A DNA stretch of 64,000 bases from a bacterium (GTDB lineage: Bacteria > Patescibacteriota > Minisyncoccia > Phycocordibacterales > UBA5272): the NCBI GenBank assembly GCA_023267595.1, contig JAHFNB010000002.1:87947-151946 (forward strand), written 5' to 3'. A program made the translations under genes and the position numbers. This document shows positions 7,617-42,201 of this stretch, piece after piece (positions within the stretch are counted from its first letter, which is position 1; each line of letters begins with the position of its first letter). The notes beneath the pieces are model-generated. The model saw nothing but the letters and a program-made list of their open reading frames with translations. It was not told the DNA's origin and ran no database searches.

Positions 7617-7672
7617 AGTATTTGTAGTACCTTCAACGATTTATTCTTGATTTCAACCACAAGGAGAAGTCC

Positions 7673-7792: not shown

Positions 7793-7873
7793 TCGCCCCG
7801 CGCGCCACCGGAGGAAGTAGCACCCGTTGCTTCCTCAATCAAAACATCGTCCACTTCATGTGGCGAGCAGTAC

Positions 7874-7908
7874 CCCGCCGACCAAAGGTCGGCGGGTTTT
7901 CATTTTTA
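7874..7908 (+). terminator. intrinsic terminator (cccgccgacc-aaa-ggtcggcggg + ttttcattttt)
   Basis: 10-bp GC stem plus a T-run. Confidence 0.6.
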
Positions 7909-7937
7909 TAAAATAGATTTTGTTGTAGTATAGTGAT

Positions 7938-9143: not shown

Positions 9144-9210
9144 TTACTAGTCACTCGTTTGTAGTTGTATTACACTAGTAACTATCAACTAGTAACTAAC
9201 AACTAACCAT

Positions 9211-9771
9211 ATGTATACTGCAAAAGATTTTTCACATTTATTAGGAATAACGGGAATGAGTGACGCACTGCTTACTAAGCATTTTACGTTGTATCAAGGA
9301 TATGTAACCAATACAAATAAGTTACTTGAATTATTAAAAACCAAAGAATCAGGGACACCAGAGTTTGCGGAATTACATCGTAGATTTGGTTGGGAATGGA
9401 ATGGTATGCGATTGCATGAACTTTATTTTGGAAATATGGTAAAGGGTGGAGTTGCTTTAAGTGAAAGGATCTTGAAGCAAAAAATTGAAGCGACATGGGG
9501 AACAGTTGAGAATTGGCAAAAAGAATTTATTGGCATGGGTGCTATGCGTGGTATCGGATGGGTTATTCTTGCTCATGATAAAAAAGATGGTGCATTATTT
9601 AATGTATGGGTAAATGAACATGATAGTGGACATTTGGCAGGGCTTACACCATTACTTGTGATGGATGTATTTGAACATGCTTTTATGCTTGATTATGGAT
9701 TAAAGCGTCCGGATTATATTGCTGCGTTTATGTCATCTATCGATTGGCATGCAGTAGAGGAAAGAATATAA
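9211..9771 (+). CDS. Fe/Mn superoxide dismutase-family protein (possibly non-canonical metal site)
   Basis: C-terminal DVFEHAFMLDYGLKRPDYIAAFMSSIDWHAV matches the SOD C-domain signature DVWEHAYYxxYxNxRPDY. The N-terminal HHxKHH region reads LLTKHF here. Confidence 0.6.
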   Translation: MYTAKDFSHLLGITGMSDALLTKHFTLYQGYVTNTNKLLELLKTKESGTPEFAELHRRFGWEWNGMRLHELYFGNMVKGGVALSERILKQKIEATWGTVENWQKEFIGMGAMRGIGWVILAHDKKDGALFNVWVNEHDSGHLAGLTPLLVMDVFEHAFMLDYGLKRPDYIAAFMSSIDWHAVEERI

Positions 9772-9810
9772 AAACAAAACGTGCGATCCTGCATGGATCG
9801 CACGTACTTC

Positions 9811-9996
9811 TTAGTTCTCGTCCTCTTTTTTTATAGGAGCACAGAGGGGATGTAAAATTTTGCCTTCGTGTCGCACGAAGGCTTGTCCACGTTTGAGGTG
9901 GTCTCCACACACACAAAACTCAGGTTCCCCACCTTTTTTTGGTTGGTATCCTGGAGGACATACTGCTCGCACACCATTTTCATTAGAAGAGTACAT
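9811..9996 (-). CDS. small Cys-rich hypothetical protein (61 aa)
   Basis: Cys pattern C-x30-CxC-x19-C resembling a zinc ribbon. Convergent with the SOD-like gene. Confidence 0.3.
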   Translation of the reverse strand: MYSSNENGVRAVCPPGYQPKKGGEPEFCVCGDHLKRGQAFVRHEGKILHPLCAPIKKEDEN

Positions 9997-10251
9997 TGTT
10001 CCCTCGTTATAGTACGATATGGTCCAAAATTAATTTATCATGTATATTATATTTGTCAAGTTGACTTAGGTATTTCATTTTGGCATTGTATATATATCCT
10101 GTATTGATTGCTTATCCACCACGAAAGAAAGGCTAAAATCTGTTACACTGTATATAGTATTTGAATTATTGTGAAAATGGTTTGTATGTATTGAATTTTT
10201 TTATTGTCTTTTCTATTAACTACAAACTAGTATCTATAAACTGTCCATTTT

Positions 10252-25265: not shown

Positions 25266-26018
25266 ATGAAAAAAGGGTTATTGCTCATATTGCTATCAGG
25301 TATAGTTGCTCTAGGATATATAGTATTCTCTGATAAAGTTACCGAGCAAGAACAAAATATACTTACTCCAGCGTCTATTGTAATTTCTAAACAGGATCCT
25401 CAAAAGGAAATTGTTATCGAAAGCGTTACGATGCCAGCAAATGGTTGGGTAGTTGCCAGAGCAATTGAGGGTAATAGATTGGGTCAGATTATTGAAATAA
25501 GCGAATTTCTTTCTAAAGGAAATCATGCCCAAATTGTAGTTCCACTTGGTGATTTTTATAACGGCGAAGAGTTAATTGGTATGATCTATGTGGATAATGG
25601 AGATACTATTTTTAATGACAATGACCAGCCGTATAAAGATACAAAGGGCAACATGATAGCTGCTTATATTAAAACTGGTGAGCTAGTTCCCGTGTCTATG
25701 ATGCAACCTGAAGTAAATGCTGGGCACATGATGGGTGGTAATATGGTTACTGTTACATATACCAATGCTGGTTTTGTACCAGCAAGAATTGAAGTTGCTA
25801 CAGGCACTATGGTTGAATTTATAAATAAAAGCAACAAGGAAATGTGGGTTGCCTCAAACGATCACCCCGGACATGAAGTTCTACCAACTTTTGACCAGTT
25901 TAAAACTATAGGAAAAGGAGGAAGGTACACATATGTTTTTGATAAGCCAGGAACATGGCAATACCATGATCATATTAATCCCGAATTAGTTGGGACTATT
26001 GAGGTACGGACAAACTAA
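25266..26018 (+). CDS. secreted cupredoxin-like putative metal-binding protein
   Basis: Signal/TM segment. C-terminal GTMVEF...HPGHEV...GTWQYHDHINPELVGTIEV resembles a cupredoxin fold with His ligands but no Cys. Confidence 0.4.
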   Translation: MKKGLLLILLSGIVALGYIVFSDKVTEQEQNILTPASIVISKQDPQKEIVIESVTMPANGWVVARAIEGNRLGQIIEISEFLSKGNHAQIVVPLGDFYNGEELIGMIYVDNGDTIFNDNDQPYKDTKGNMIAAYIKTGELVPVSMMQPEVNAGHMMGGNMVTVTYTNAGFVPARIEVATGTMVEFINKSNKEMWVASNDHPGHEVLPTFDQFKTIGKGGRYTYVFDKPGTWQYHDHINPELVGTIEVRTN

Positions 26019-26021
26019 AAA

Positions 26022-26046
26022 GCACCCAACTGGGTGTTTTTTAGAT
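26022..26046. terminator. bidirectional terminator between convergent genes
   Basis: aaaaagcacccaactgggtgttttttag. Confidence 0.5.
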
Positions 26047-26202
26047 TTTGGTTAACCGTACGCAATGGATATGCAATTGATTGTAAAAAGCTAAACTTGA
26101 AAATGCTTCCATATCGTCTCTAAGCTTCTCAATTTGCCCACCAGTGAAGTCTTTACCACCATCTGGTATTATTTTATCTCTCATTTCTTGGATTGTTAGC
26201 AT
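26041..26202 (-). CDS. unannotated small ORF (53 aa) immediately downstream of the 810-aa gene
   Basis: Hand translation MLTIQEMRDKIIPDGGKDFTGGQIEKLRDDMEAFSSLAFYNQLHIHCVRLTKI. Separated by 14 nt from the upstream stop. No clear SD. Confidence 0.25.
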   Translation of the reverse strand: MLTIQEMRDKIIPDGGKDFTGGQIEKLRDDMEAFSSLAFYNQLHIHCVRLTKI

Positions 26203-26216
26203 GGTTTGATTTTGAT

Positions 26217-28649
26217 TTAGTATTGATAACTAATTCTATGTGCTTCGTGCCATACAACCCTTATCCCTAGAGGTTCTAGTTTCTCTTTTAAATTCTTAAT
26301 CCCGTCTTCTATAACTTTTGTCTTTTTCCCATCCATCGAAGAGAACAATAAAATATTAGGCTTGATTCTCTTAGCAAGCTCTAAAGACTCTTCAAAATTA
26401 CTTTTCTTGAAAAGAGATGAGCTTTGTTTAATTTCCCCAAAAATAAATTGGCCGTCTTTTACGCAGACAATGTCTAGATCTCCTAAGTGTTTCCATTTTT
26501 TTCCAATCCTTTTGTATATATCAAGACTAGGGCTATATATAAAAGAAGATCTTGCCTCATCATACAACTCTCCCAATGTAAGGAGAACTGGAACTAACCC
26601 GTGCTGTCTTACCCCACTTTCTACTAGACTATTAAGTCTATAAAGCCACGATACTTCGGGGGCAAGATTAAATATATTTCCACAGCCTCTACACTCCGCT
26701 TTCTGCTTAATATCATCAACATGAAACCAGTTTGCGTATCCACATGACGGACAGTGAGGTTTCAAACCCATGAGCAGAATATTATTATCTACCAAATCTT
26801 CTACTTCTTTCAAAACCTCTTCCTCAAATTGATGTAGTCTTTCCTTACTTAGTTTTATACTTTTACCTTGTGCCTTTAATCCTTCATGTACAATTCTTAT
26901 TTTTTCCTTCAGAAAAAAATCAAACGTTTCTTCCTTACCAGATTTACCGTGCTGTTTAGATTGAAATAGTATATGATCAGCCAACCACTTCAATTCATCT
27001 TCTCTTTCGGTTTTGTTTGTGGGTATTGATTTAAGACTTTTCTTGAGTTTGTTTAAAATAGTAATTTTCTTATCTTCATCAGAAGAAGGATTACTCAGGG
27101 AAAGGGTTTCAAAGATTCCTTTCCAGTATGGTTCTCTAAACTGATAATATACTTGGTTCAATCCTCCGAACAAACCAATGATGCCCTGCAGATAGCGCCC
27201 TTTGTCTGAACGTTGTGTATGAAAGTACGTCCTGTTATCAATTATCCCTGCCCTAGCATCACTAGTATATAATGGTCTATTTTGACCAAAAATCAAAGAG
27301 GAAATTATCTCACGATCTTCAGGTATCTTAATATTTAAATTGGACTCATCAGGTCTAAAAGATGATTTGGTTTCCATTACTACACTTGGAATACCATTGT
27401 GCTGTATTCTGGCTTTCTTGTATGGGAAAAAGGCTTGAGTTAGTTGATTACGATTTGGGACCCTCCACCAATGTCGAAGGTTTGTATATTTGTACCTCTC
27501 AGGTCTATATTGAATATAAAGATCTAGCATCCAATGTCCTCCCTGAACTCCTGCAGGTAATTTTGGATCTTCTACAACAATTGTCTCTTCACGGCTATAT
27601 GCTTGGTAAAGATCCATTCCTGGCCTGACATCAAAATAATCTTTATTATTACCATAATTAGGAAATATCTGTTTAGGAGAAAAAACAATGGCTTTTTTCC
27701 CACACCATGTCTTCTCACCAAGAGAGTCTGTAATTTTTTGCAATCTCTTTTCTGATAAAGAAAAACTAACAAAGTTAATCATTCTTCCATTATTATCATT
27801 CCCTGTACGTGAAGATCTTTGACGAAAAAATAACTGTAAACCTTCCTTTAATTTTTTATCTTCAGCAACTTCTGGTGATAGCCAAACATGACAAATATCT
27901 GGACGCATCCACTGAGGTATTAAAAGAACACGGTTCCAGTAATGTAATAGATCATAAGGAGAGTCACCCACGATAACTGTGAAATGTTCGTTACCTTGAG
28001 CATAGTCAACATCACTTATTTGGTTAGGCACAGATGATAATTGTATCGGGAATACAAAGCTTTTATGTGTATCTCCTAAATCAAGAAGCGCACTATTAAC
28101 ACTTTCAGCAGTATCCACTGTGTATACTACTTTGGCGTCTATTTTTTCTCCCATTTGGTTTAAGAAGTAATCTTCGTAAGTACCAAAGTTAAAGTGGAGA
28201 AATTCTTTTAACTTCTCAGAAGTAAGATCTTTTGTGTTAAAGAAAACAAATGGTTTCTTTTCTGGATGATGATAGACAGACGCTCTTTGTATTAGGTCTG
28301 CTGTAGGGTGATTTATGATTGGAAGCTGATCGTGAAAACTTATATGTTTATGATCATTCACTTCTACAGAGTAAGGTGAGAGCAAGTCTTCCACCTTTTG
28401 AAGCAGCTTTTTTTGTGGCTTAACTAAAAAGCTAATGATATCTGGGTCAAAGTCTTTCAAAAATTCCCAAACCTCTTCTGAAAACTCTCTACCATCAGAA
28501 AAAATAATAGGGTTAAAACGACCCCCATATTTACCTACATTGTAGTCAAAAATGTTTCTAAATACATCTATAGTAAAGTCCTTGGGGCTCACTATAAAAA
28601 CAACTTTTATTAAACGTTTATTTAAGTAGATAGGATATGGTAATTCCAT
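26217..28649 (-). CDS. large uncharacterised protein (810 aa) with C-terminal zinc ribbon + PD-(D/E)xK nuclease-like module
   Basis: C-terminal CPSCGYANWFHVDDIKQKAECRGCG (CxxC-x16-CxxC) is followed by ELYDEA...GDLDIVCVKDGQFIFGEIKQ, the canonical hGDhDhh...hhhhEhK restriction-endonuclease-fold motif. The N-terminal ~600 aa are unassigned. Its start overlaps the Macro gene stop. Confidence 0.6.
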   Translation of the reverse strand: MELPYPIYLNKRLIKVVFIVSPKDFTIDVFRNIFDYNVGKYGGRFNPIIFSDGREFSEEVWEFLKDFDPDIISFLVKPQKKLLQKVEDLLSPYSVEVNDHKHISFHDQLPIINHPTADLIQRASVYHHPEKKPFVFFNTKDLTSEKLKEFLHFNFGTYEDYFLNQMGEKIDAKVVYTVDTAESVNSALLDLGDTHKSFVFPIQLSSVPNQISDVDYAQGNEHFTVIVGDSPYDLLHYWNRVLLIPQWMRPDICHVWLSPEVAEDKKLKEGLQLFFRQRSSRTGNDNNGRMINFVSFSLSEKRLQKITDSLGEKTWCGKKAIVFSPKQIFPNYGNNKDYFDVRPGMDLYQAYSREETIVVEDPKLPAGVQGGHWMLDLYIQYRPERYKYTNLRHWWRVPNRNQLTQAFFPYKKARIQHNGIPSVVMETKSSFRPDESNLNIKIPEDREIISSLIFGQNRPLYTSDARAGIIDNRTYFHTQRSDKGRYLQGIIGLFGGLNQVYYQFREPYWKGIFETLSLSNPSSDEDKKITILNKLKKSLKSIPTNKTEREDELKWLADHILFQSKQHGKSGKEETFDFFLKEKIRIVHEGLKAQGKSIKLSKERLHQFEEEVLKEVEDLVDNNILLMGLKPHCPSCGYANWFHVDDIKQKAECRGCGNIFNLAPEVSWLYRLNSLVESGVRQHGLVPVLLTLGELYDEARSSFIYSPSLDIYKRIGKKWKHLGDLDIVCVKDGQFIFGEIKQSSSLFKKSNFEESLELAKRIKPNILLFSSMDGKKTKVIEDGIKNLKEKLEPLGIRVVWHEAHRISYQY

Positions 28650-29179
28650 TACAAGGAATTATAGTCTTTTAATACCTCCTTTGCACCTTCTTTATATAAA
28701 TGAAAAATCTCTTCTGAAAAGAGAACAAATCTTATTTCTTCAAAATGATCAGATTCTCCTATAAATTCTTTAATGGTTGAAAGTGCTATAGGAACAGCTT
28801 CTTCAGGAGGATACCTAAATGACCCTGTCGCAAGAGAAGGAAAAGCCAGGGTCTTAATATCATGTTTCTTGGCTAAATGTAAAGTGTTTCTGTAACAGAG
28901 TCTTAGTATCTCGGCCTCACTTCCTTTCTCAAAACCATACTCTGGCCCAACCGTATGGATTACGTGCCTAGCGGGTAAATTATGGCCTCTAGTGAGCTTT
29001 GCTTCTGCTGTTTCGCATCTACCTACCAGGTAGCATTCTTCAGTAAATTTTGGGCCAGCTCTACGATGAATAGCTCCTGTTACTCCTCCACCTTTCCCAA
29101 GCCACTTATTGGCGGGGTTTACGATTGCGTCAACAGCTTGTTCAGTAATGTCACCTAAAATTACTGTTACTCTGGTCAT
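28649..29179 (-). CDS. Macro-domain protein (ADP-ribose / O-acetyl-ADP-ribose processing, YmdB-like)
   Basis: ITEQAVDAIVNPANKWLGKGGGVTGAIHRRAGP...VIHTVGPEY...LAFPSLATGSFRYP are Macro-domain signatures. Confidence 0.85.
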   Translation of the reverse strand: MTRVTVILGDITEQAVDAIVNPANKWLGKGGGVTGAIHRRAGPKFTEECYLVGRCETAEAKLTRGHNLPARHVIHTVGPEYGFEKGSEAEILRLCYRNTLHLAKKHDIKTLAFPSLATGSFRYPPEEAVPIALSTIKEFIGESDHFEEIRFVLFSEEIFHLYKEGAKEVLKDYNSL

Positions 29180-29325
29180 GGTTGCTTGGGAATAGGCTTG
29201 TATACAGAGTTCACTAGCGTGATTAAACTCATAGCTTGATCAAGGGCTTCTTGTTCAGAAAGATCTAGTCCTGTTTTTCTTTTGTATATTTCTTTATACT
29301 TTTGGACCAGTTCTTCATTTGTCAT
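29176..29325 (-). CDS. unannotated small ORF (49 aa) translationally coupled (ATGA overlap) to the Macro gene
   Basis: Hand translation MTNEELVQKYKEIYKRKTGLDLSEQEALDQAMSLITLVNSVYKPIPKQP. Its stop overlaps the Macro ATG. Predicted helical. Confidence 0.3.
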   Translation of the reverse strand: MTNEELVQKYKEIYKRKTGLDLSEQEALDQAMSLITLVNSVYKPIPKQP

Positions 29326-29327
29326 AA

Positions 29328-30317
29328 TTAGAATTTAAAAAACCTTGAAAAGATCTCTTTATACCATTTTACTTTGCTTTTGTTTTGGATATCCGTAACT
29401 GGAGTTGTAGTTGTAGTTACTACTCCAACCATGGAAGTCGTCGCTATTACTGTTGTACTAGATTTGGATTCCATAATTACCGTTTTTGATTTAGCAATAG
29501 CTTTAACAGTAGGAACTTTTTTAGTAACAATAGTTGTACTTGTTGAGGTGGGTGTTTCTTTAAATGCCTTGGAGAGCACAGAAGCAAAAGGATTACCTGT
29601 GTTATTCCATTTAGTCTCATCCTTGATAACCTCAGCACTGATTTTAGGAGGAGTAGTAACACAACCAGTTGCAGATAAGCTATACCCTGAATCACAGACA
29701 CATTTATTATTTTCTGTGTGGGTATTTGGATACTTTACTGTACAAGAATCTGTGCGATCAACAACTAAACACGATAGAAGAGTCTTGTATTTGAAAATAG
29801 TATCCTGAGAATTATAGAGACAGGAATTATATTTGGTCTTATTGTATTCAGTCTGTTTCGCCTTAGCGTCTTCACAGTCAGTTGTGTTGGCATATAGTCC
29901 AGCACTCACACTGCCCGCTATATTCATCATACTTTGCCTAGACTTTACACAAATTTGATATGTTTGCTCATTCCTTCCTTCATCTGTACTAAGGAAGCCT
30001 TGGCACATGGTTTGTGTACTCGATTCTACTTTACTTATAGAGCTTTCTACTTCCTGTTTCTGTTTATCATATTCAGCTTGTGGCAAATACATAGGACAAC
30101 TTGTCTTAGTGTTCTGACATGAGCTCATTGAAGAATAAGAAACTGAACTATCTTTCCATCCATCATTACAAATTACACTTCCATCCCAATCTGCACCCGC
30201 CGAACAACTAACTCCACCATGATATGAACATGCCCCCGCATCAGCACTTACTAAACTAGTATTAGAAATAGAAAAAACAAGAAACAAAATATAAAAAACA
30301 GATATTGTATTTTTCAT
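29328..30317 (-). CDS. secreted Cys-rich protein with Thr-rich C-terminal linker
   Basis: Signal peptide, about 20 Cys residues, and a TTTTTPVT/TSTSTT low-complexity tail. Confidence 0.5.
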   Translation of the reverse strand: MKNTISVFYILFLVFSISNTSLVSADAGACSYHGGVSCSAGADWDGSVICNDGWKDSSVSYSSMSSCQNTKTSCPMYLPQAEYDKQKQEVESSISKVESSTQTMCQGFLSTDEGRNEQTYQICVKSRQSMMNIAGSVSAGLYANTTDCEDAKAKQTEYNKTKYNSCLYNSQDTIFKYKTLLSCLVVDRTDSCTVKYPNTHTENNKCVCDSGYSLSATGCVTTPPKISAEVIKDETKWNNTGNPFASVLSKAFKETPTSTSTTIVTKKVPTVKAIAKSKTVIMESKSSTTVIATTSMVGVVTTTTTPVTDIQNKSKVKWYKEIFSRFFKF

Positions 30318-30572
30318 TTTAGCGTGGGATTAATCTGTGTCAGGCAACAAAAATGGTCCCCCGATACAGCGACAATCTCCGAAGAGACGTCCCTCAACCT
30401 TTCAGTTGAGGACCCACGCTAATGAATGCCGATCAGGAGACCGTTTTTATTAGCGTGGGTTTTGTCAGCCATGACACCATAATTAAAAGTGTTTTAGGCT
30501 ACAAATATTCAATTGTCCATACTATTATCGCAGAAAAAGGCTAAATAAACAATTATTCTGTCAAGGTTAAAT

Positions 30573-31322
30573 ATGGTATATTTTGAGCTAATGAGTAACC
30601 TGTCGATTATAGAAAAACAAAGTCTTTCTGTCCTGGAACATCTGGAATATATGATTGATCTAGGGCATGTAATTCCACTAAATAAAAGTGGGGTTAAGAT
30701 CCAAAAATATGACGTCACATTTGGTGATATCGACTTTAAAGCTCTGGGTTTGCCTAAACTAGAAAACTTTTATGGTATTTCTAAGTACTTACGAAATAAT
30801 GGCGTGATGTTTACCATAGACTTTGATTTAGTAAACGATCACCCCGCGCAGGAGGTGAGTGGAGAGATCTATGATGAAGACATGGTTCACCTGGGTTCTC
30901 TAGAAGGTCCAAACATAAAAGCCATCAGAGAGAACATAGCATCTCTTAAACAAAAGATTGTCGGTAAAAATATTACAGACAACCAAAAAGGAAATATAAA
31001 AATAGTTTTTAATATTAAGAAATATTCTCTTAATATTAATGCTGATACGATTCTTTTTGACCCCAGCACTTTAGATTGGAGCTTAATTAAAGTTCTTGTT
31101 GAGAAACAGTATCAAGGAAAGACACTAATTTCGTGGGACGAAGTTCTTGAATTCTTCAATGGAAGACCTTATACGGGTAAACCTGTCATAGGGCAAAAAC
31201 AAGTTGGAGATTCGAGAGACCGCTTAAACAGAAAAATTAAGAGTTCCTTTGGCCTAAAAGAGAACCTTATCACTAGGAAAAAGAATCAATACTCACTAAC
31301 AAAAAAAGTGACTAAAAAGTGA
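30573..31322 (+). CDS. hypothetical protein (island gene)
   Basis: 249-aa ORF with basic C-terminus. No family recognised. Confidence 0.4.
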   Translation: MVYFELMSNLSIIEKQSLSVLEHLEYMIDLGHVIPLNKSGVKIQKYDVTFGDIDFKALGLPKLENFYGISKYLRNNGVMFTIDFDLVNDHPAQEVSGEIYDEDMVHLGSLEGPNIKAIRENIASLKQKIVGKNITDNQKGNIKIVFNIKKYSLNINADTILFDPSTLDWSLIKVLVEKQYQGKTLISWDEVLEFFNGRPYTGKPVIGQKQVGDSRDRLNRKIKSSFGLKENLITRKKNQYSLTKKVTKK

Positions 31323-31576
31323 CCGTAAGTGAGTCACCACTAGTTATTAGAAAATCGGGATACAGTATCCTGATTTTTTATTGGGATCTGTATTACAAAA
31401 TGCAGATTAGTGAAGAACATCTTAAAAAATATCAAACTATCTTTTTTGAGGTATATGGATATGAAATAGATAAAACTCAGGCTCTAACTGAGCTTACTTC
31501 TCTTGTCTGTTTAATTAATGCTGTTCATAAGCATTTAAACACTAAACCCCATGCTAAAAGAGTACCTGCAGAATAA
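31319..31576 (+). CDS. hypothetical small protein (island gene)
   Basis: 85-aa ORF overlapping neighbours by 4 nt and 26 nt. Confidence 0.3.
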   Translation: MTVSESPLVIRKSGYSILIFYWDLYYKMQISEEHLKKYQTIFFEVYGYEIDKTQALTELTSLVCLINAVHKHLNTKPHAKRVPAE

Positions 31577-33707
31577 AGGAATATCCTTCCGAGAATCAAA
31601 TGGAGAGCTAATTGTAAGGTGTCTTTTTAACGACTGTGATAAAGATAGTCGTGGACAAGAGGCACACTTATATTTCGACGCGTCCACATCTCAATATCAT
31701 TGTAAAAAATGTGATTCCCGCGGAAATATAATAACGCTTAAAAAACACTTAGGCGATGTTTCAGTTCCTGTTCAAAATCAAAACAAAAGGAACATCAAAA
31801 CTCTAACACCTCTTATGGTGGAAAGATATCATAACGACTTACCTCAACACATTGTTGATTACCTCCATAAGCGTGAAGTTACTGATGAGATTATCTCTAA
31901 ATATAAATTAGGGTATAAACAAGAATATGGCACCTTTTGGATTACTGTCCCTATAAAAGATATAGATGGAAATTATGCTTTCTTCAAACTTCGTCAAGAT
32001 CCAAAGCTTGGTAGCGAAAAGCGTATGTGGCCCGCATCTGAAAATGGTGCACAAATATTTGACTGGGAAACTCTTTTAATGGCAAAAGAAAGAATTCTTA
32101 TCGTCGAAGGTGAAGGTGATGCTCTTACGGTTAAGTCTCGCAATATCGATTGTATTTGTGGCACAGCAGGAGCGGGCACCTGGAAAGAATCATGGAATGA
32201 ACATCTAAGACCAGAGCTTGAGTATTTTATATGCTATGACAATGACGAACCTGGGAGAAAAGGTGCGTTGCGTGTAGCAGAGAATCTTTTTAAGCATGGA
32301 TGTGAAAAGATTCGCATTGTTACTCTTCCACCAGAAGTAGGTGATAAGGGTGATATTGGAGACTACTTGGCACGCTTAAAAATGCCACTGGAGGATCTTT
32401 TTACTAAATATGCGGAGGAATACCCAAAGAAGATAGATACGCGTAGTTTTACAGAGGTTCATATTGATTTTGTGAAAGATGTTCTTGAAAGCACAATTAA
32501 AAAAGATGATGACAACAAGATTATTACATTTCTATCAATGCTGACAACCTATACTGATGAAGCGCAAATAAACATTCTCTTTAATGCTCCAAGTTCAACA
32601 GGTAAGTCTCACCTGCCAATATCAGTTAAAGACTTATTCCCGTTGGAAGACCTTATAGTCTTAGCCAACTGTTCTCCTACGGCGTTTTTCCACGAGCAAG
32701 GACAATATGACAAGGAGAAGAATCAAATTATGGTAGATCTGTCGAGAAAAATTCTTATCTTTACTGATATGCCTAACTCTGGATTGCTAGAACGACTTCG
32801 TCCAATGTTATCTCACGATCAAAAAGAATCAGTTATGAAGATAACTGATAAGAATCAGAAAGGAGGAAATAAGACAAAAACAGTGGTCCTTGTGGGATAT
32901 CCAAGCGTGTACTTCTGTACTGCTGGCCTAAAGATAGACGAACAGGAAACAACAAGGTTTATTACATTGAGTCCATCAATTGAGCAAGACAAACTAACAG
33001 CGGGAATTAAGCAATCTATTGCAAAAGAATCAGACCGAGAGAAATTCTTATCAGAAGTAAATGCAGATCCAAATAGGGAACTTTTGAAAGAAAGAATACG
33101 AGCAATCAAACAAGAAAGTGTTGTGGATATAAAAATAAAGGATACAAAACTTATTGAAGACATGTATTTAGACAATAAGAAGTTGGTAAAACCACGTCAC
33201 CAACGTGATGTGAAGAAAGTCATTTCCCTTATCAAGGGTTTCACTCTTCTTAATTTGTGGTTTAGAGAAAGAAAAGGAGGACATGTTTTTGCTAATGAAG
33301 AGGATATAAAAAATGGTGTAAATCTCTGGTTACAAATATCTGATGGTCAGGATTATGGTGTAGCACCATATGTCCTTGAAATCTTCAAGGAGGTTATTCT
33401 TCCTACGTGGCAAGAACACAAGAGCAAAGCCTTGGGTTCAGGTTTTGGGGTAGAAGGAATATCGCGTGCCGAGATACAAGAAAAGCATAAATTGAAGTAC
33501 GGACGCTCCATCAGTCCCGTATACCTCAGACAACAAATCCTCCCTCAAATGGAGGGTGCAGGCCTCATCTCACAGGAACAAGACCCACTTGATAAGAGAT
33601 TCTCTCTCGTAACCCCACTAGAGAGTGAATTTGAATCTGAAACGAATATAGTGTTGCCACATGTGGGGGTAAACATCGACAAAAATGAAGAAAATAATCC
33701 AAATTAA
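31551..33707 (+). CDS. primase-like replication protein: CHC2 zinc finger + Toprim domain fused to a C-terminal P-loop ATPase
   Basis: Zinc finger CLFNDC...HCKKCDSRGN. Toprim acidic motifs ILIVEGEGDALTV and YDNDEPGRKG. Walker-A-like NAPSSTGKSH and hhhhD ILIFTDM. Confidence 0.7.
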   Translation: MLKEYLQNKGISFRESNGELIVRCLFNDCDKDSRGQEAHLYFDASTSQYHCKKCDSRGNIITLKKHLGDVSVPVQNQNKRNIKTLTPLMVERYHNDLPQHIVDYLHKREVTDEIISKYKLGYKQEYGTFWITVPIKDIDGNYAFFKLRQDPKLGSEKRMWPASENGAQIFDWETLLMAKERILIVEGEGDALTVKSRNIDCICGTAGAGTWKESWNEHLRPELEYFICYDNDEPGRKGALRVAENLFKHGCEKIRIVTLPPEVGDKGDIGDYLARLKMPLEDLFTKYAEEYPKKIDTRSFTEVHIDFVKDVLESTIKKDDDNKIITFLSMLTTYTDEAQINILFNAPSSTGKSHLPISVKDLFPLEDLIVLANCSPTAFFHEQGQYDKEKNQIMVDLSRKILIFTDMPNSGLLERLRPMLSHDQKESVMKITDKNQKGGNKTKTVVLVGYPSVYFCTAGLKIDEQETTRFITLSPSIEQDKLTAGIKQSIAKESDREKFLSEVNADPNRELLKERIRAIKQESVVDIKIKDTKLIEDMYLDNKKLVKPRHQRDVKKVISLIKGFTLLNLWFRERKGGHVFANEEDIKNGVNLWLQISDGQDYGVAPYVLEIFKEVILPTWQEHKSKALGSGFGVEGISRAEIQEKHKLKYGRSISPVYLRQQILPQMEGAGLISQEQDPLDKRFSLVTPLESEFESETNIVLPHVGVNIDKNEENNPN

Positions 33708-33725
33708 GAGCTAATAGCCAAAATT

Positions 33726-34187
33726 ATGAACAATAAACATAAGATACAGAGAAATAGACCTATCTTACTCACAGATATTCTGAGTAAAAACGTGCTTTTA
33801 CCAGGAGAAAGTCAGTACGAGCTTCAGAAAATACGTGAAAAGACCTTAAAAGACGTAGTTCCGATAGGAGCTTTAGAAGAAATTCTTTTTTCAAAAGTAG
33901 TTGCCGATACATGGAAACTGAGAAGGTTGTATGTTCTGGAAACAAGTGTTTTAAGGGATCAACAAATTGTTTGGGCTAAAAAACAGGCAAGTGAGAATGA
34001 GTTTTCCCTTGAGGTATACAGAGGCGACAAAGCCCTTAAAAGATTCCGCAGTACCGCTAAACAATTGAAGTACACAAAACAACTTGAGGATATTCAAAGA
34101 CATCAAACAAGTCTGGAATCTAGTCTTATTAAAACGATCTCGGAATTAAAGGATCTACAAAAAGTAAGGTTGAAAAATAAAAACTAG
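33726..34187 (+). CDS. hypothetical coiled-coil protein upstream of the recombinase (candidate directionality factor)
   Basis: 153 aa, charged and helical. Position only. Confidence 0.35.
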   Translation: MNNKHKIQRNRPILLTDILSKNVLLPGESQYELQKIREKTLKDVVPIGALEEILFSKVVADTWKLRRLYVLETSVLRDQQIVWAKKQASENEFSLEVYRGDKALKRFRSTAKQLKYTKQLEDIQRHQTSLESSLIKTISELKDLQKVRLKNKN

Positions 34188-34275
34188 CTTCATCGAATAT
34201 GTTATTATTAATATGCTCATCCAAATACGCATTGTCAGAAATCTCTAATACACTAGAGAATAGTCTGTATTGTCG

Positions 34276-34349
34276 CACTAAAAGGCGGTCCTTTCCGATA
34301 ATACAGGCTTCGGCTATGTGTATTGGATGAGCAGGACCGCCTTTTAGTG
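34276..34349. repeat. 17-bp perfect inverted repeat (cactaaaaggcggtcct / aggaccgccttttagtg) with 40-nt spacer, just upstream of the recombinase start
   Basis: Read directly from the sequence. The right arm ends 10 nt before the ATG at 34359. Confidence 0.6.
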
Positions 34350-34358
34350 TTATTAATT

Positions 34359-36014
34359 ATGAACAACAATATCAAGTGGGTAATATATGCGCGTAAGTCA
34401 ACAGAATCAGAAGATAAACAGATTCAATCAATTGACGACCAAACTAAATACATGCGAGAGATCGCAACGCGCGAAGGTTTGAATGTGATCGAAATCATTA
34501 CTGAATCAAAATCTGCAAAAGTGAAAAATAACCGTGAAGGGTTTAGTAGACTTCTTTCACTTATTGATTCAGGAAAGGTCCAAGGTATTCTTTGTTGGAA
34601 AATGGATCGTCTTTCGCGCAACCCTGTAGAAAGTGCGAATATTCAAGAGGCTCTACAACTACGAAAACTGGAATGTATATATACAGCCGAAAGAAAGTAC
34701 TGGCCTGAAGATAATGCTCTCATCTTTGCAGTTGAACAAGGAATGGCCAATCAGTACTCACGCGACCTTTCAAAAAATGTGAAGCGTGGTATGCAATCAA
34801 AAGCTGAAAAAGGATGGTTCCCGAATATTCCTCCTATTGGTTATCTAAATTCAAAACTAAGAGACAAAGGTAATGAGACTATTTTGATAGATGAGGAGCG
34901 ATTTAAAATTGTAAGAAAAATGTGGGATCTTATGCTTACAGGAACATATTCATTACCTCAAGTTCTTAGAATAGCCACTAATGATTGGGGACTTACCACG
35001 CCAACTAGAAAGAAACTTGGTGGAAAAGCTGTATCTATAAGCTATGTATACCTAATGTTTTCTAACGAGTTCTATACAGGAACATTTAAGTATTCAGGGA
35101 AAATATATCAAGGCAAACATAAGCCAATGATCACAAGAGATGAATTTGATAAGGTCCAAATGATTCTTGGAAAGAAAGGTAAACCAAGAGCAAAAACACA
35201 TTCTTTCCCTTTTACAGGACTGCTTCATTGTTCTGACTGTAGCGCAATCATTACCGCTTCTGAAAAACAAAAGCTTGTTAAGTCTACTAACACTGTGAAT
35301 ACATATGTCTACTATCACTGCACGAAGAGGAAGAAGTACGTTAAATGCTATTCGGCTCCAATTCGCGTAGAGGAACTAGAGAAGCAGGTAATATCACTGA
35401 TAGAGAAAAATTCTATTAATCAGAAGTTCTATGACCTTGCATTAGAAGTATTTAAAGGAATGCATGAAGTTGAGGTTGATACTCGCCAGGCTATTTATTC
35501 TACACAGTTAAGAAACGTAGAAGTAACGCAAGCCAAGATTGATAGAGCTAAGACATTTCTTTTTAATGGAACAATTTCTGAAGAAGAGTACAAGACACAA
35601 AAGGCAGAATGTGAAAGTGATTTAGTAAGACAAAAAGCTCAGCTACTTGAAACAGAGAAGCGCGCGCAAAATTGGAACCAATTAACTGAAGACGCTTTTC
35701 ACTTTGCAAAATATGCAATCAATGCATTTTCATCCGATGATAATCAAATCAAAAAAGAAGTAATAACTAGCTTAGGTTGGAACCATGAAATAAAAAGCAA
35801 AGAAGTCTTAATCAATCTGCATTCATGGTTTACGGTACTAAAAAATGGTGAAATTGATATAACAGAACAGATGAGACGGTTGGAACTAAACAAAACCCTT
35901 ACACCCGAACGACGAAAAGAGGCATCAGCCTCAATTCATACTAGGTTGTGCGCCGGGCTGGATTTGAACCAGCGAAGCCCGAAGGGCGACAGATTTACAG
36001 TCTGTTGTGATTGA
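34359..36014 (+). CDS. large serine recombinase (resolvase/invertase N-domain + recombinase domain + zinc ribbon)
   Basis: VIYARKSTESEDKQ...DRLSRN catalytic-domain motifs (Ser nucleophile in YARKST). About 550 aa, with a Cys cluster HCSDCS...HCTKRKK. The C-terminal 66 nt overlap the antisense tRNA-Tyr. Start moved to the ATG encoding MNNNIKWVIY. Confidence 0.85.
   Translation: MNNNIKWVIYARKSTESEDKQIQSIDDQTKYMREIATREGLNVIEIITESKSAKVKNNREGFSRLLSLIDSGKVQGILCWKMDRLSRNPVESANIQEALQLRKLECIYTAERKYWPEDNALIFAVEQGMANQYSRDLSKNVKRGMQSKAEKGWFPNIPPIGYLNSKLRDKGNETILIDEERFKIVRKMWDLMLTGTYSLPQVLRIATNDWGLTTPTRKKLGGKAVSISYVYLMFSNEFYTGTFKYSGKIYQGKHKPMITRDEFDKVQMILGKKGKPRAKTHSFPFTGLLHCSDCSAIITASEKQKLVKSTNTVNTYVYYHCTKRKKYVKCYSAPIRVEELEKQVISLIEKNSINQKFYDLALEVFKGMHEVEVDTRQAIYSTQLRNVEVTQAKIDRAKTFLFNGTISEEEYKTQKAECESDLVRQKAQLLETEKRAQNWNQLTEDAFHFAKYAINAFSSDDNQIKKEVITSLGWNHEIKSKEVLINLHSWFTVLKNGEIDITEQMRRLELNKTLTPERRKEASASIHTRLCAGLDLNQRSPKGDRFTVCCD
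35948..35964. repeat. 17-nt direct repeat gtgcgccgggctggatt (right copy; within the tRNA-Tyr 3' end, putative attR)
   Basis: Exact match to 12957..12973. Confidence 0.7.
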
Positions 36015-36032
36015 CCACTCCACCACCGACGC
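35949..36032 (-). tRNA. tRNA-Tyr (anticodon GTA), type II
   Basis: Reverse complement: acceptor gcgtcgg/ccggcgc. Anticodon arm acaga-ctGTAaa-tctgt. Long variable arm. T-arm ctggttcaaatccag. No encoded CCA. Confidence 0.8.
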
Positions 36033-39271: not shown

Positions 39272-39302
39272 TAAAAAGTCCTCCTATGGAGGACTTTTTA
39301 TT
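39272..39302 (+). terminator. intrinsic terminator (agtcctcc-tat-ggaggact + T-run)
   Basis: aaaaagtcctcctatggaggactttttatt. It overlaps the track start of the leuS ORF, which argues for the later ATG. Confidence 0.6.
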
Positions 39303-39348
39303 ATATAGAGAGTTTCTTTTCCATAATTTTATTGTTAGTATAGATACT

Positions 39349-42201
39349 ATGAAATCCTATGATCACAAAAAGATTGATGCATATTGGCAAGATAAGTGGC
39401 AGAGTGATTCACTCTATAAAACTTCAGAACTTCCACAAGGAAAAAAAATCTACGTGCTCGATATGTTTCCATATCCATCAGGTGAAGGATTGCATGTAGG
39501 ACATCCAAAAGGATATATTGCAACTGATATCTATTCTCGTTTCAAAAGAATGAATGGATATGATGTACTACATCCAATGGGTTGGGATGCATTTGGACTT
39601 CCAGCAGAACAATTTGCGCTTAAACATAAAATACATCCACGTATTGCAGTAGAAAACAATATTGCGAACTTTAAGAACCAACTTTCACACATAGGACTTG
39701 ATTATGACTGGTCACGAGAAATAAATACAACGGATCCAACGTTTTATAAATGGACTCAGTGGATATTTACAAAATTATATGAAAAAGGTCTTGCATATGA
39801 AAGTCACAAACCAATTAATTGGTGTCCATCATGTAAGACAGGTCTCGCAAATGAAGATGTAAATCATGATGGTACTTGTGAGAGATGTGACACAAAGGTG
39901 GAGAAAAAACCAATTCGTCAGTGGGTACTTAAGATCACTGATTATGCAGATAGAATGCTTACAGATTTGGACACACTAGAATGGCCAGAAGGAGTCAAAC
40001 TTGCTCAAAAGAATTGGATAGGGAGAAGTGAAGGGGCAGAGTTTGATTTTTCATTAACAGATGTAAAAGATCATACTGACGGGTCAATGTCAGTAAAGGT
40101 ATTTACTACACGAGCAGATACATTGTTTGGCGCAACATTTATTGCAATTTCTGCAGACACTGCTAGAGAATGGTTTAATGCTGGTTGGGAAACAATAGAT
40201 GGGGTGAAAGAATATGTTATCGAGACATTAGAAGAACAAAATAAAGAAAATGATTATTCTGTAGTCCCAGAAAAAACAGGAGTATACAGTGGGATTAATG
40301 CTATTAATCCTGCAACAGGTGAGAAAATTCCTGTTTGGATTGCAAATTATGTATTAGGTGGTGTAGGAACTGGTGCAATTATGGCGGTACCTGCACATGA
40401 CGAACGTGATTTTGAATTTGCCAAGAAATATAATTTACCAGTTAAACAAGTTATCTCTCCAGAAACAGGAGTCGTACAAACAAATCCAGAGTTTAGAAAA
40501 AGTATTGTAGCCATTCTGTGGGATAAGAAACAAAATAAGTTTCTCAGTATTAATTGGGGTAAAAACTTAGGTGGAAACTTATTTATTGGTGGTGGAGTAG
40601 ATGGTGATGAAGATAGTATTATTTGCGCCACTCGAGAAATCAAAGAAGAGACTGGCTACACGCATATACGTTATCTTTCTAAGACAGAAGTAATTCATCA
40701 TAATTATTTTGCGCATTCAAAAAATGTAGGACGACGCATTGAAGCAGTAGGACTTTTATTTGAACTTATTGATGATACACAAGAAGAGGTGTCACTTGAA
40801 GAAAATGAAAAGAATAAGTTTACGACAGAGTGGTTATCCAAACAGGAAGTAGAATCAAAAATAGAAGATGCATTACATGCTCTTGTGTATACAATGCTTG
40901 TTAAAGAAGAAATCTATACTGGAGACGGGACACTTATCTCTTCTGGAGAACATGATGGTATAACAAGTGATGAAGCAAGAAATAGATTTGTAGAAAAGTA
41001 CAGTGGGAAAAAAGTTATAAAATATAAAATGGAGGACTGGGTGTTTGCGCGGCAGAGATACTGGGGTGAACCATTTCCAGTAGTGCGTGATAACAATGGA
41101 AAAGTATATATGGTAGATGAATCCGAACTCCCAGTACTGCTTCCAGAAGTGAAGAGTTATGAACCAACAGGAACAGGAGAATCTCCGCTTGCAGCAATTA
41201 CTGATTGGGTTAATGTACGAGGATACATTACTAATAAAGGTACCTTTAAACAATCAAATGATGGAGAAATATTTACTCGAGAGACAAATACCATGCCTCA
41301 GTGGGCAGGATCTTCGTGGTATTACTTACGTTTTGCAGATCCACATAACGATGCTGCACTTATTTCTCCAGAAATAGAAAAGAATTGGTTACCAGTGGAC
41401 GTGTACGTTGGAGGTGATCATGCAACACGGCATTTAATTTATGCACGATTTTGGCATAAGTTTTTATATGATATTAGAGTTGTCTCTACTACTGAGCCGT
41501 TTTCTCGTCTTGAATTTTTAGGATTTATTCTTGCAGAAGATGGACGTAAAATGAGTAAACGTTTAGGTAATGTTATCAATCCTGATGATGTTATTAATGA
41601 GTATGGAGCAGATACCTTTCGTGTCTATGAGATGTTTATGGCACCATTTGATCAGACCGTGGCATGGAGTACGACAAGTATAAAAGGTGCTGATAAATTT
41701 ATAGATAGAGTTTATAGTTTACAAAAGAAAATAAGTGAAACAAGTACAGTTTCAAATATGCTTCATAAAACAATTAAAAAAGTTGGTGAAGATATAGAAA
41801 AGTTCAAGTTTAATACTGCAATATCTCAAATGATGATATTGGTAAATGCTATGGAAGAGGGTAGTTTTACACATGAAGAGTATAGTACTCTTGTTACACT
41901 TCTTGCACCATTTGCGCCACATATGACAGAGCAGATTTGGAATGAATTAGGAAATACCACCTCTATACATAAAGTATCGTGGCCATTGTACGATGAATCA
42001 CTTTTAGTAGAAGATAGCACAACAATATCATTACAGATTAATGGAAAGTTACGCGGAACATTTGTTGTTCCTTTTGGAAGTGATGATAGTACAGTCTTAG
42101 AAGAGGCAAAAATACTAGAATCCTATAAGAAATATGTAGGTGAACTCAAGCCTAAGAAGGTAATTATTATCAAAAATAGACTCATAAATATAGTAATTTG
42201 A
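39349..42201 (+). CDS. leuS: leucyl-tRNA synthetase with an internal Nudix-hydrolase domain insertion
   Basis: HIGH-like PYPSGEGLHVGH, editing-domain TTRADT, and AVPAHDERDFEFA. KMSKR(L) reads GRKMSKRLGN. Between the editing domain and the RQRYWGEP region lies a complete Nudix box GGGVDGDEDSIICATREIKEETGY. Confidence 0.9.
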   Translation: MKSYDHKKIDAYWQDKWQSDSLYKTSELPQGKKIYVLDMFPYPSGEGLHVGHPKGYIATDIYSRFKRMNGYDVLHPMGWDAFGLPAEQFALKHKIHPRIAVENNIANFKNQLSHIGLDYDWSREINTTDPTFYKWTQWIFTKLYEKGLAYESHKPINWCPSCKTGLANEDVNHDGTCERCDTKVEKKPIRQWVLKITDYADRMLTDLDTLEWPEGVKLAQKNWIGRSEGAEFDFSLTDVKDHTDGSMSVKVFTTRADTLFGATFIAISADTAREWFNAGWETIDGVKEYVIETLEEQNKENDYSVVPEKTGVYSGINAINPATGEKIPVWIANYVLGGVGTGAIMAVPAHDERDFEFAKKYNLPVKQVISPETGVVQTNPEFRKSIVAILWDKKQNKFLSINWGKNLGGNLFIGGGVDGDEDSIICATREIKEETGYTHIRYLSKTEVIHHNYFAHSKNVGRRIEAVGLLFELIDDTQEEVSLEENEKNKFTTEWLSKQEVESKIEDALHALVYTMLVKEEIYTGDGTLISSGEHDGITSDEARNRFVEKYSGKKVIKYKMEDWVFARQRYWGEPFPVVRDNNGKVYMVDESELPVLLPEVKSYEPTGTGESPLAAITDWVNVRGYITNKGTFKQSNDGEIFTRETNTMPQWAGSSWYYLRFADPHNDAALISPEIEKNWLPVDVYVGGDHATRHLIYARFWHKFLYDIRVVSTTEPFSRLEFLGFILAEDGRKMSKRLGNVINPDDVINEYGADTFRVYEMFMAPFDQTVAWSTTSIKGADKFIDRVYSLQKKISETSTVSNMLHKTIKKVGEDIEKFKFNTAISQMMILVNAMEEGSFTHEEYSTLVTLLAPFAPHMTEQIWNELGNTTSIHKVSWPLYDESLLVEDSTTISLQINGKLRGTFVVPFGSDDSTVLEEAKILESYKKYVGELKPKKVIIIKNRLINIVI

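Follow-up and report, generated by a model that had tools for sequence, protein, structure and literature searches.

Single-protein systems that combine a variable N-terminal sensor with a C-terminal PD-(D/E)xK nuclease are represented by Shedu SduA and by Type IV restriction enzymes (Mrr, AspBHI), which are solitary genes of defence or mobile islands and have no methylase partner. CARF-nucleases of type III CRISPR (Can2, Card1 and VC1899; DUF1887) are associated with type III CRISPR-Cas or with cyclic-nucleotide synthases. The PrrC anticodon nuclease is an accessory defence gene embedded in type I restriction-modification (R-M) operons. Concerning ADP-ribose processing, the closest described enzymes are E. 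coli YmdB and MacroD, together with DarTG and the orphan DarG-like or NADAR enzymes of phages, which are small Macro-type enzymes carried on mobile elements. Two reports describe phage-borne, orphan DarG-like enzymes that act like antitoxins and neutralise DarT, a precedent for element-borne counter-defence (PMC11825919, PMC13309987).

The window analysed here is a 64,000-nt stretch of a Patescibacteriota contig (JAHFNB010000002.1). It bears a minus-strand operon of five genes, among them a Macro-domain gene and an 810-aa ORF, hereafter BIG. The features of the operon and of the element around it are the following:

26015..26044, terminator-like bidirectional hairpin separating the island operon from the cupredoxin gene; 13-bp stem and then a T run, consensus match only; probable left edge of the island
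26041..26202, minus strand, 53-aa ORF downstream of BIG, the final ORF ahead of the hairpin
26217..28649, minus strand, BIG, 810-aa ORF, cargo of the island; its family, large and unnamed, consists of ~800-aa proteins
26247..26630, minus strand, PD-(D/E)xK (restriction-endonuclease-like) nuclease domain of BIG, residues ~674-801, putative catalytic D724/D726...E739-x-K741
26634..26777, minus strand, four-cysteine zinc ribbon of BIG (C633, C636, C653, C656), residues ~625-672
26778..27209, minus strand, all-helical region of BIG by the secondary structure of the model, residues ~481-624, with a conserved RSDKGRYL motif at its start
27210..28649, minus strand, N-terminal region of BIG, residues 1-480, three Rossmann-like alpha/beta modules (~1-100, 134-200 and 223-322) and a beta-rich domain (~340-480)
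28649..29179, minus strand, Macro-domain gene, 176 aa (Pfam Macro, E-value = 3.7e-37, full model covered)
29176..29325, minus strand, 49-aa ORF overlapping the Macro start by 4 nt
29328..30317, minus strand, opening gene of the operon, for a 329-aa protein rich in Cys and Thr whose N-terminus bears a hydrophobic, signal-like segment
30573..36032, plus strand, rest of the element: 249-aa and 85-aa ORFs, 718-aa Toprim primase, 153-aa ORF and serine recombinase, abutting the tRNA-Tyr
34323..36014, plus strand, serine recombinase (Resolvase, Recombinase and Zn_ribbon_recom; PHROG integrase, E-value = 1e-75)
35948..36032, minus strand, tRNA-Tyr, abutting the element

The operon runs from the gene of the 329-aa signal-peptide protein to the hairpin, and the stop codon of Macro overlaps the start codon of BIG by one base (TAATG, TTGTAATGGAA), as had been noticed when the DNA was first read without database searches (the sequence-only reading). 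The span given there to the cassette, 26041-29325, also includes the 53-aa ORF downstream and the 49-aa ORF upstream, both of which are also called as genes in L082 and L083, two independently assembled copies of the element. The 49-aa ORF presents 71% identity to a 49-aa ORF of L084 and 51% to a 60-aa ORF of L091, and it is a paralogue of the island's own 85-aa ORF (31319..31576; 32% identity, E-value = 2.6e-7). The 329-aa protein found no match in Pfam or PHROG and is 60% identical to a 340-aa gene established at the same position in L084; no homologue of the 53-aa ORF was detected in the other elements compared. The 718-aa primase matches Pfam Toprim_2 and the PHROG DNA primase, and housekeeping genes flank the island. 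The independent contig L082 shows 99.6% identity to the window element, and this identity stops exactly at 36032. For their att sites, serine recombinases require only very short core identities. The proposed location of the cassette inside an integrative island is borne out by the primase, the recombinase, the tRNA-Tyr and the housekeeping flanks.

The AlphaFold2 model of BIG (pLDDT 88.6, pTM 0.83) displays at its C-terminus the alpha-beta-beta-beta-alpha-beta core of restriction-endonuclease-like folds; strands two and three of this core carry a conserved D...(D/E)-x-K. Fold matches of this domain include the Mrr-type domain of LlaBIII as well as AspBHI, EcoT38I, SdaI and FokI. The motifs lie at C633-x2-C636-x16-C653-x2-C656, at 694-699 (ELYDEA) and at 723-742 (GDLDIVCVKDGQFIFGEIKQ). 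Among 66 diverse homologues all four cysteines are invariant, D726 and E739 are kept in 66/66 and K741 in 65/66, and position 724 is always D or E. Both lines of evidence agree with the sequence-only reading, which had placed a zinc ribbon followed by a PD-(D/E)xK nuclease at this C-terminus, had named a match to restriction-endonuclease folds as a check and had pointed to D-x-D...E-x-K as putatively catalytic; its CxxC-x16-CxxC and GDLD...EIK motifs are present and conserved, but the E of its ELYDEA motif is not, E694 being Q in 32/66 homologues. Membership of the PD-(D/E)xK superfamily is therefore supported by fold and motif conservation, and we infer nuclease activity for BIG.

Ahead of the nuclease, S481, G484 and W509 are at least 89% conserved among the 66 homologues. 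Model confidence of residues 474-500 drops once the C-terminus is removed, which suggests packing against the nuclease or the zinc-ribbon part. Helices 576-621 may be part of a winged-helix unit whose wing holds the zinc ribbon as an insertion. The N-terminal region (residues 1-480) is presumed to be the sensor or regulatory part. The best whole-chain fold matches of BIG are ligand-gated CARF-nucleases (Foldseek; ~600 columns, TM-score at most 0.29). However, BIG is twice as long as Can2, Card1 and VC1899, the PDB sequence searches revealed no similarity to them, and they lack its three Rossmann-like modules, beta-rich domain, helical region and zinc ribbon. In its solitary gene, its C-terminal restriction-endonuclease fold, its island setting and its lack of a methylase partner BIG resembles Shedu SduA and the Type IV enzymes.

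BIG reaches no cut-off in Pfam, NCBIfam or PADLOC, and these databases and PHROGs returned sub-threshold noise only (DUF234, Cas4, TFS4 and two PHROGs of unknown function). Specifically, in PADLOC-DB v2.0.0, which includes Shedu, PD-T4/T7/Lambda and the PDC candidates, the only model to respond was that of Cas4, over the Cys-rich stretch 602-639 (E-value = 0.0071). PDB sequence searches, with the single sequence and with a profile, gave nothing at E < 0.05, ten distant homologues showed only weak zinc-ribbon matches in Pfam, and 50,697 phage genomes contained no match. Hence the HMM searches agree with the earlier view that the protein fits no known family or named system, and its first ~600 aa remained without a recognisable family in our searches as well. 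A homologue search produced 52 sequences, and a search of GTDB species-representative genomes run with closer sequences led to 115 tblastn-confirmed matches from many phyla. At E ≤ 1e-3 the family comprises 4186 representatives of 50%-identity clusters, and 861 at E ≤ 1e-30. Its distribution over the phyla is patchy and takes in Patescibacteria, Poribacteria, Acidobacteriota, Bacteroidota and Proteobacteria. All homologues from cultured organisms are named 'hypothetical protein' at source, and one family member bears the JGI name 'predicted Zn-ribbon and HTH transcriptional regulator'. The BIG family is large, unnamed and horizontally mobile.

Genomic neighbourhoods were surveyed at 77 homologous loci with 6-kb flanks, whose 817 ORFs were clustered all-against-all. 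No conserved partner of any kind emerged from these ORFs, no neighbour family being present at more than 8 of the 77 loci, and the upstream neighbour lies on the same strand and within 30 nt in only 12/67 cases. The closest BIG relative (L078) is coupled to a 369-aa gene of which no other locus has a homologue, and the five closest relatives (P0002 to P0006, 66-78% identity) have neighbours other than Macro. Flanking proteins are equally diverse, with 108 different Pfam families among 110 proteins, the top ones all being R-M or integrase families. In contrast to the setting of Can2 and Card1, cas and cyclase families are absent from the recurrent neighbours and from the top Pfam and PADLOC families of these 110 proteins (immediate neighbours HMM-scanned).

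BIG homologues recur beside R-M systems and recombinases. By raw counts, recurrent R-M families occur at no fewer than 20/77 loci (~26%), and R-M or recombinase/terminase families at 30/77. At four loci (L007, L008, L010 and L022) the homologue lies directly downstream of HsdR and YgjP, and in Poribacteria (L025-L029, chromosomal) it is established between HsdS and HsdM, in a type I R-M operon that also holds Fic and Schlafen/AlbA_2. These placements recall that of PrrC, but there is no homology between the two and most BIG family members lie outside R-M operons. Other homologues are found downstream of Type ISP enzymes (L030-L035 and L041) or adjoin a SNF2 helicase and an Eco57I-type methylase (L011 and L023). 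Concerning recombinases, close relatives in Patescibacteria adjoin serine recombinases, and on a Burkholderia glumae plasmid the homologue is a cargo gene adjoining three tandem tyrosine recombinases.

The window Macro keeps the fold and the N-x-x-N, GGG and G-x-[YF]-G loops that bind ADP-ribose, and is 42% identical to E. coli YmdB over the full length. Its best NCBIfam models are of the YmdB/MacroD O-acetyl-ADP-ribose deacetylase type, at 174 bits against a cut-off of 200, below equivalog level. Ordinary relatives and YmdB carry VNAAN...GGGGVDG and GVYGYP, whereas the clade borne by these elements is marked by VNPAN...G[KR]GGGVTG and G[SH]FRYP; F-R thus stands for Y-G, and throughout the clade Thr replaces the Asp of GGGVDG, which we take to be the catalytic Asp of YmdB. 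Compared with DarTG, the operon lacks DarT or another ADP-ribosyltransferase, and its Macro is predicted to be YmdB/MacroD-like and not DarG-like. Pfam and PADLOC also detected no TIR or SIR2 domain in the operon genes.

The sequence-only reading had joined Macro and BIG in a candidate two-gene system linked to ADP-ribose and had named a lack of co-conservation as a refutation. Tblastn of Macro against the 77 BIG loci detected no match up to E = 1e-3, and what appeared up to E = 10 was noise; no Macro gene adjoins any of the five closest BIG relatives (0/5). The only pairs found are copies of the window element that are at least 99.6% identical. The closest Macro homologues (65-75% identity) are all located in Patescibacteria integrative elements with a serine recombinase and a primase or Rep; the five nearest that were examined (P0208, P0212, P0213, P0214 and P0216) are all in recombinase-bearing elements. 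Cargo downstream of Macro was seen in four of these five, namely type III Mod and Res, PDC-S49 or an unrelated 507-aa protein, and in P0214 the contig ends right after Macro. Similarly, L084 has a primase 91% and a Macro 75% identical to those of the window, with non-homologous cargo. As the same Macro clade stands ahead of differing cargo, it forms the border of a slot in which cargo is exchanged, BIG being one such cargo. By these sequence comparisons Macro is an element backbone gene, the last conserved one before the variable cargo, of a YmdB/MacroD-like clade specific to these elements. Since Macro is not co-conserved with BIG, the Macro-linked reading is largely refuted. The translational coupling in the window element counts against a backbone-only reading of Macro, and a local functional link is conceivable.

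We judge it slightly better than an even chance that the cassette consists of two unrelated adjacent modules, a stand-alone BIG defence nuclease as cargo and an element-backbone Macro. The lack of matches in PADLOC and in the phage genomes speaks against it, as does an R-M association that recurs but is limited to about a quarter of the loci. A dedicated two-gene system of the DarTG or Thoeris kind, with the nuclease controlled by an ADP-ribose-type signal or modification that Macro degrades or reverses, would account for the one-base overlap, the shared operon, the Rossmann-like modules with their CARF-nuclease matches and the unusual active-site substitutions of the Macro clade. It has become very improbable given the 0/77 loci with a Macro gene within 6 kb, the 0/5 closest relatives with one beside BIG, the type III R-M, PDC-S49 and other cargo behind the same clade, the near-identity of all pairs and an operon in which no domain of the ADP-ribosyltransferase, TIR or SIR2 kind was detected. 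These results rule out that the two genes are obligate partners, but they are compatible with a local, optional coupling. We would give equally little credence to a looser variant, where widespread single-protein immune sensor-nucleases bind a nucleotide-derived signal through one or more Rossmann-like (CARF/MID-like) modules, and the upstream Asp-to-Thr Macro is a facultative regulator that degrades or edits this signal.

As for BIG itself, a mechanistic variant of the two-module explanation would make it a Type IV-like restriction enzyme whose N-terminal modules read a DNA modification and whose nuclease cuts modified foreign DNA, and which would therefore need no methylase or antitoxin partner. 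The solitary gene without a conserved partner, the matches of the nuclease domain to LlaBIII, AspBHI, EcoT38I, SdaI and FokI and the homologues inside or beside R-M operons are in line with this proposal, which is a real but minority possibility. Less probable still is a role in the service of mobile elements and not of host defence, be it in DNA processing during integration or excision, or as a nuclease that provides addiction or excludes competing elements: the island-edge position and the repeated proximity to serine or tyrosine recombinases suggest it, but 62/77 loci have no recurrent mobile families within 6 kb, Poribacteria embed the gene in chromosomal type I R-M operons, and in the cargo slot it swaps with bona fide R-M systems. 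The zinc ribbon and possible winged-helix element could also belong to a housekeeping DNA repair or regulatory protein, but invariant catalytic residues, a patchy distribution, a highly variable genomic context and the occurrence in islands and on a plasmid render this highly unlikely.

Returning to the two-module explanation, BIG is probably a single-gene, stand-alone defence nuclease of an undescribed family. Its C-terminal third would form a DNA-binding and DNA-cutting unit, made of the winged-helix-like helical part, the zinc ribbon and the PD-(D/E)xK domain with its intact D-x-D...E-x-K. The nuclease may be kept inactive by the N-terminal region until the latter senses its trigger, be it a small-molecule cue, a modification of DNA or foreign nucleic acid; the target would then be the invading DNA or, in an abortive-infection mode, the DNA of the cell. 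The Macro gene belongs to the backbone of a family of ~10-kb Patescibacteria elements. Besides a serine recombinase and a primase or AAA_25 Rep, these have a divergent operon with Macro as its last backbone gene, and the slot just after Macro carries different defence genes in different elements. Macro would serve the element itself; by analogy, a counter-defence role is plausible, and it might for instance strip the ADP-ribose that ADP-ribosyltransferase defences of the host attach.

The present case shows that a functional pair cannot be deduced from translational coupling in one genome. If the BIG family is a defence nuclease, it would be a large, cross-phylum addition to single-gene immune systems. 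The family spans over 4000 clusters at the 50% identity level, is covered by no model of Pfam, NCBIfam or PADLOC, and has a presumed sensor region of ~600 aa that resembles no solved structure. Very few mobile elements or defence systems have been characterised in Patescibacteria, and the compact integrative-element family presented here combines a constant backbone of serine recombinase, primase or Rep, and Macro with a swap-in slot after Macro. The element-specific Macro clade is a candidate counter-defence enzyme, and the cargo slot behind it could be mined for more defence candidates.

Five minus-strand genes of the window form a tightly packed operon, in which an 810-aa ORF (hereafter BIG) directly follows a Macro-domain gene:

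29328..30317, minus strand: 329-aa Cys/Thr-rich protein with a signal-like N-terminus; 2-nt gap to the next gene
29176..29325, minus strand: 49-aa ORF; 4-nt overlap with the next gene (Macro)
28649..29179, minus strand: 176-aa Macro protein; 1-nt overlap with BIG (TAATG)
26217..28649, minus strand: 810-aa ORF (BIG); 14-nt gap to the 53-aa ORF
26041..26202, minus strand: 53-aa ORF, followed by a terminator-like hairpin (26015..26044)

The Macro gene matched Pfam Macro (E-value = 3.7e-37), and BIG stayed below threshold in the Pfam, NCBIfam, PADLOC and PHROGs searches. The Macro-BIG junction and the BIG motifs described in the sequence-only reading were confirmed, since the ORFs, the 1-nt overlap and the quoted motifs were all found in the sequence (CxxC-x16-CxxC at BIG residues 633-656, the others at 694-699 and 723-742). 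Concerning the first protein of the operon (29328..30317), its hydrophobic N-terminus, many Cys residues and Thr-rich C-terminal part suggest that it is probably secreted or surface-located. It has no family match in Pfam or PHROG and is 60% identical to its counterpart in a sister element (L084).

The AlphaFold model of BIG is confident (pLDDT 88.6, pTM 0.83) and contains the following parts:

about 1-100, 134-200 and 223-322: three Rossmann-like alpha/beta modules
about 340-480: beta-rich domain
481-621: helical region
625-672: zinc ribbon
674-801: alpha/beta nuclease domain

Every one of the 66 full-length homologues has the four Cys, W641, D726 and E739; K741 is kept in all but one (65/66), and position 724 is always D or E (66/66). 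Both the fold test and the motif test placed BIG in the PD-(D/E)xK superfamily. The zinc ribbon followed by a PD-(D/E)xK-like nuclease, as had been proposed, is therefore upheld, and the assignment of the C-terminus as a putative nuclease domain of the PD-(D/E)xK type is well supported by the conserved catalytic residues and the domain layout of the model. The Glu of ELYDEA is not conserved among the 66 homologues. The N-terminal two thirds received no structural assignment, in agreement with the earlier remark that some 600 aa of BIG resemble nothing recognizable.

BIG belongs to a large family. A word-indexed search returned 52 relatives with identities down to 24%, and a profile search covering 1.84 billion cluster representatives returned 4186 representatives at E ≤ 1e-3 and 861 at E ≤ 1e-30. 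A length of ~800 aa is common to nearly all of the 150 family matches listed, and the source databases name the homologues only as 'hypothetical protein'. Flavobacterium sp. Leaf82 (WP_131726520) and Roseateles saccharophilus (WP_132576568) are among the bacteria that encode a homologue. In GTDB species-representative genomes, 115 relatives were confirmed and 77 distinct loci were kept, belonging to Patescibacteria, Poribacteria, Acidobacteriota, Bacteroidota, Cloacimonadota, Gemmatimonadota, Proteobacteria and others. Such a scattered distribution suggests that the family has moved by horizontal transfer.

The Macro protein is not the partner of BIG, and the ADP-ribose-linked two-gene defence or toxin system suggested for the pair is not supported. 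Search of the 77 BIG loci (6-kb flanks) with the Macro protein (tblastn) gave no match at E ≤ 1e-3, and what appeared at E ≤ 10 was noise. Likewise, all-against-all clustering of 817 ORFs from these loci revealed no conserved neighbour family in more than eight of them; the 110 immediate neighbours of BIG carry 108 different Pfam families, and a same-strand upstream neighbour within 30 nt was present at only 12 of 67 homologues. None of the five closest relatives has a Macro neighbour. Specifically, P0002 (78% identity) lies between an unknown 369-aa gene upstream and a serine recombinase downstream, P0004 (71%) adjoins a 144-aa gene, P0003 and P0005 (both 70%) adjoin a serine recombinase, and P0006 (66%) an FtsK-gamma protein. 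All Macro-BIG pairs found were copies of the window element. The sequence-only reading had itself listed a Macro gene that is not co-conserved as grounds for refutation, and this is the outcome observed. Identification of the two genes with DarTG or Thoeris was also rejected, because they are not co-conserved and an ADP-ribosyltransferase, TIR or SIR2 domain is lacking.

The operon belongs to an integrative element of ~10 kb that occupies about 26.0-36.0 kb of the window. To the right of the operon, the element comprises a 249-aa ORF, an 85-aa ORF, a Toprim primase of 718 aa, a 153-aa ORF and a large serine recombinase of 563 aa; the 3' end of the recombinase gene overlaps a tRNA-Tyr. These bounds are given by the flanks, namely an RND efflux pair and a cupredoxin gene on the left and MsrA, LeuRS and other housekeeping genes farther right. 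The best database hits assign the host to Patescibacteria (Parcubacteria/Paceibacterota). The LeuRS ORF (39286..42201, 971 aa) carries a NUDIX domain (residues 404-524, Pfam E-value = 5.8e-10) inserted directly after the editing domain, an unusual fusion. An independent metagenome contig (L082) matches 25578..36032 at 99.6% identity. The match breaks off precisely at 36032, where the tRNA-Tyr gene has its outer end. Past that point, L082 carries different DNA with a ClpB-like gene, only 82.6% identical to the ClpB of the window (10506..12947). The serine recombinase has 599 aa in L082 (1..2619 region) vs. 563 aa in the window (34323..36032 region), and the break resembles a recombination or integration junction that passes through the recombinase gene at its 3' end. 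Additionally, the 49-aa ORF has a paralogue (32% identity, E-value = 2.6e-7) in the 85-aa ORF (31319..31576) that precedes the primase, and relatives of the former occur in sister elements L084 (4855..5004, 71% identity) and L091 (3210..3392, 51%). Together they make up a putative family of small helical proteins confined to these elements.

At about 50% identity, the YmdB/MacroD-like relatives of the Macro protein number in the thousands; its closer kin, at 65-75% identity, form a small tight clade. All five clade members that were looked up reside in recombinase-bearing elements. Four of them share the layout of the window: besides a serine recombinase and a primase or AAA_25 Rep protein, they have small/membrane ORFs in a divergent operon that ends in Macro. 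In the fifth (L087/L088), Macro is preceded by a serine recombinase and small ORFs, and its short contig carries no replication gene. The genes found after Macro are:

window: BIG
L085, L086, L091: type III methylase, followed in L085 by a ResIII type III restriction subunit
L089: DUF3761 and a P-loop protein matching PADLOC candidate PDC-S49
L084: a 507-aa protein, unrelated, that has a D...E-A-K motif of its own
L087, L088: contig end; on the side of the recombinase there are a PDC-S18 (NucS_C) gene and type I hsdS/hsdM

Of the five different cargoes seen in this slot, three contain known or candidate defence genes. The primase of L084 is 91% identical to that of the window, and its 249-aa, 329-aa, 49-aa and Macro proteins are 53-75% identical to their counterparts, although the gene after Macro is non-homologous to BIG. 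We infer that Macro is the last backbone gene before a cargo slot, because the cargo differs across elements and because L084 combines a shared backbone with non-homologous cargo. The L084 cargo (5559..7082) contains DSVDIILHQDQASFFVEAKAKR, another PD-(D/E)xK-like D...ExK motif, and has no Pfam or PADLOC match.

The element Macro clade bears the signature VNPAN...G[KR]GGGVTG and G[SH]FRYP, whereas the corresponding stretches of E. coli YmdB and of ordinary relatives read VNAAN...GGGGVDG and GVYGYP. Thr therefore stands for the Asp of GGGVDG, G[KR]GGG for GGGG, P for the A of NAAN and F-R for Y-G. Relatives at ≤55% identity keep the YmdB-type residues, and P0217, another Macro relative, is intermediate. 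In YmdB and MacroD, the Asp of GGGVDG is the catalytic residue that activates water, and it is missing from viral macrodomains as well. A counter-defence role of the element Macro, by removing ADP-ribose marks, is plausible by analogy, since phage-borne orphan DarG-like and NADAR enzymes are reported to neutralise DarT (PMC11825919, PMC13309987).

Concerning BIG itself, the genes around its homologues differ from locus to locus, but restriction-modification (R-M) systems and recombinases turn up repeatedly among them. HsdR and a YgjP-like peptidase lie directly upstream in L007, L008, L010 and L022, an SNF2 helicase and an Eco57I-type methylase adjoin the homologue in L011 and L023, and Type ISP enzymes are upstream in L030-L035 and L041. 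In Poribacteria (L025-L029, about 1..10300) the homologue is embedded in a type I R-M operon with the fixed order HsdR (C-terminal part), Fic, Schlafen-AlbA_2, HsdS, 131-aa ORF, BIG and HsdM; here the Schlafen-AlbA_2/HATPase_c_4 protein reaches 1111 aa, the ORF between HsdS and BIG has 131-169 aa and the BIG homologue ~905 aa. On a conjugative plasmid of Burkholderia glumae (L094, NZ_CP052134.1, 1711..9788), an 834-aa homologue follows three tandem tyrosine recombinases, which look like a 'recombinase in trio' arrangement; a 174-aa ORF lies in between and a MazEF pair nearby. Reverse transcriptase (RVT_1) genes were found a few kb from close BIG relatives in L078 (10512..11933) and L096 (5478..6563). 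The former adjoins a bAvd gene, as in diversity-generating retroelements, and L078 also has a terminase-like gene; both BIG copies are probably in prophages.

Recurrent R-M families occur in at least 20 of the 77 BIG loci, and R-M or recombinase/terminase families in 30 of the 77, both being raw counts. As BIG also has no PADLOC match and no phage-genome match, its function is a matter of inference. The balance tips slightly toward BIG being a single-gene defence nuclease, because it is a solitary gene with an intact nuclease site and a large unassigned N-terminus, and is exchangeable with R-M genes in the cargo slot. The N-terminus would then gate the C-terminal nuclease. A Type IV-like, modification-dependent enzyme is a serious variant. 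In operating principle, BIG resembles Type IV enzymes, Shedu and CARF-nucleases, single-protein systems that combine a sensor with a PD-(D/E)xK domain; it did not belong to any of the named defence families tested. The whole-chain model matches CARF-nucleases, but the N-terminal part modelled by itself yielded no more than generic Rossmann matches, and cas or cyclase neighbours do not recur around BIG homologues.

Two things are left standing: a large family of probable defence nucleases that carries no annotation, and a modular integrative element of Patescibacteria whose cargo slot is led by Macro. Many candidates for defence nucleases encoded by one gene exist; nevertheless, BIG is worth an experiment, given the size of its family, the 600 aa that have no assignment and how few mobile elements of these bacteria have been characterised.
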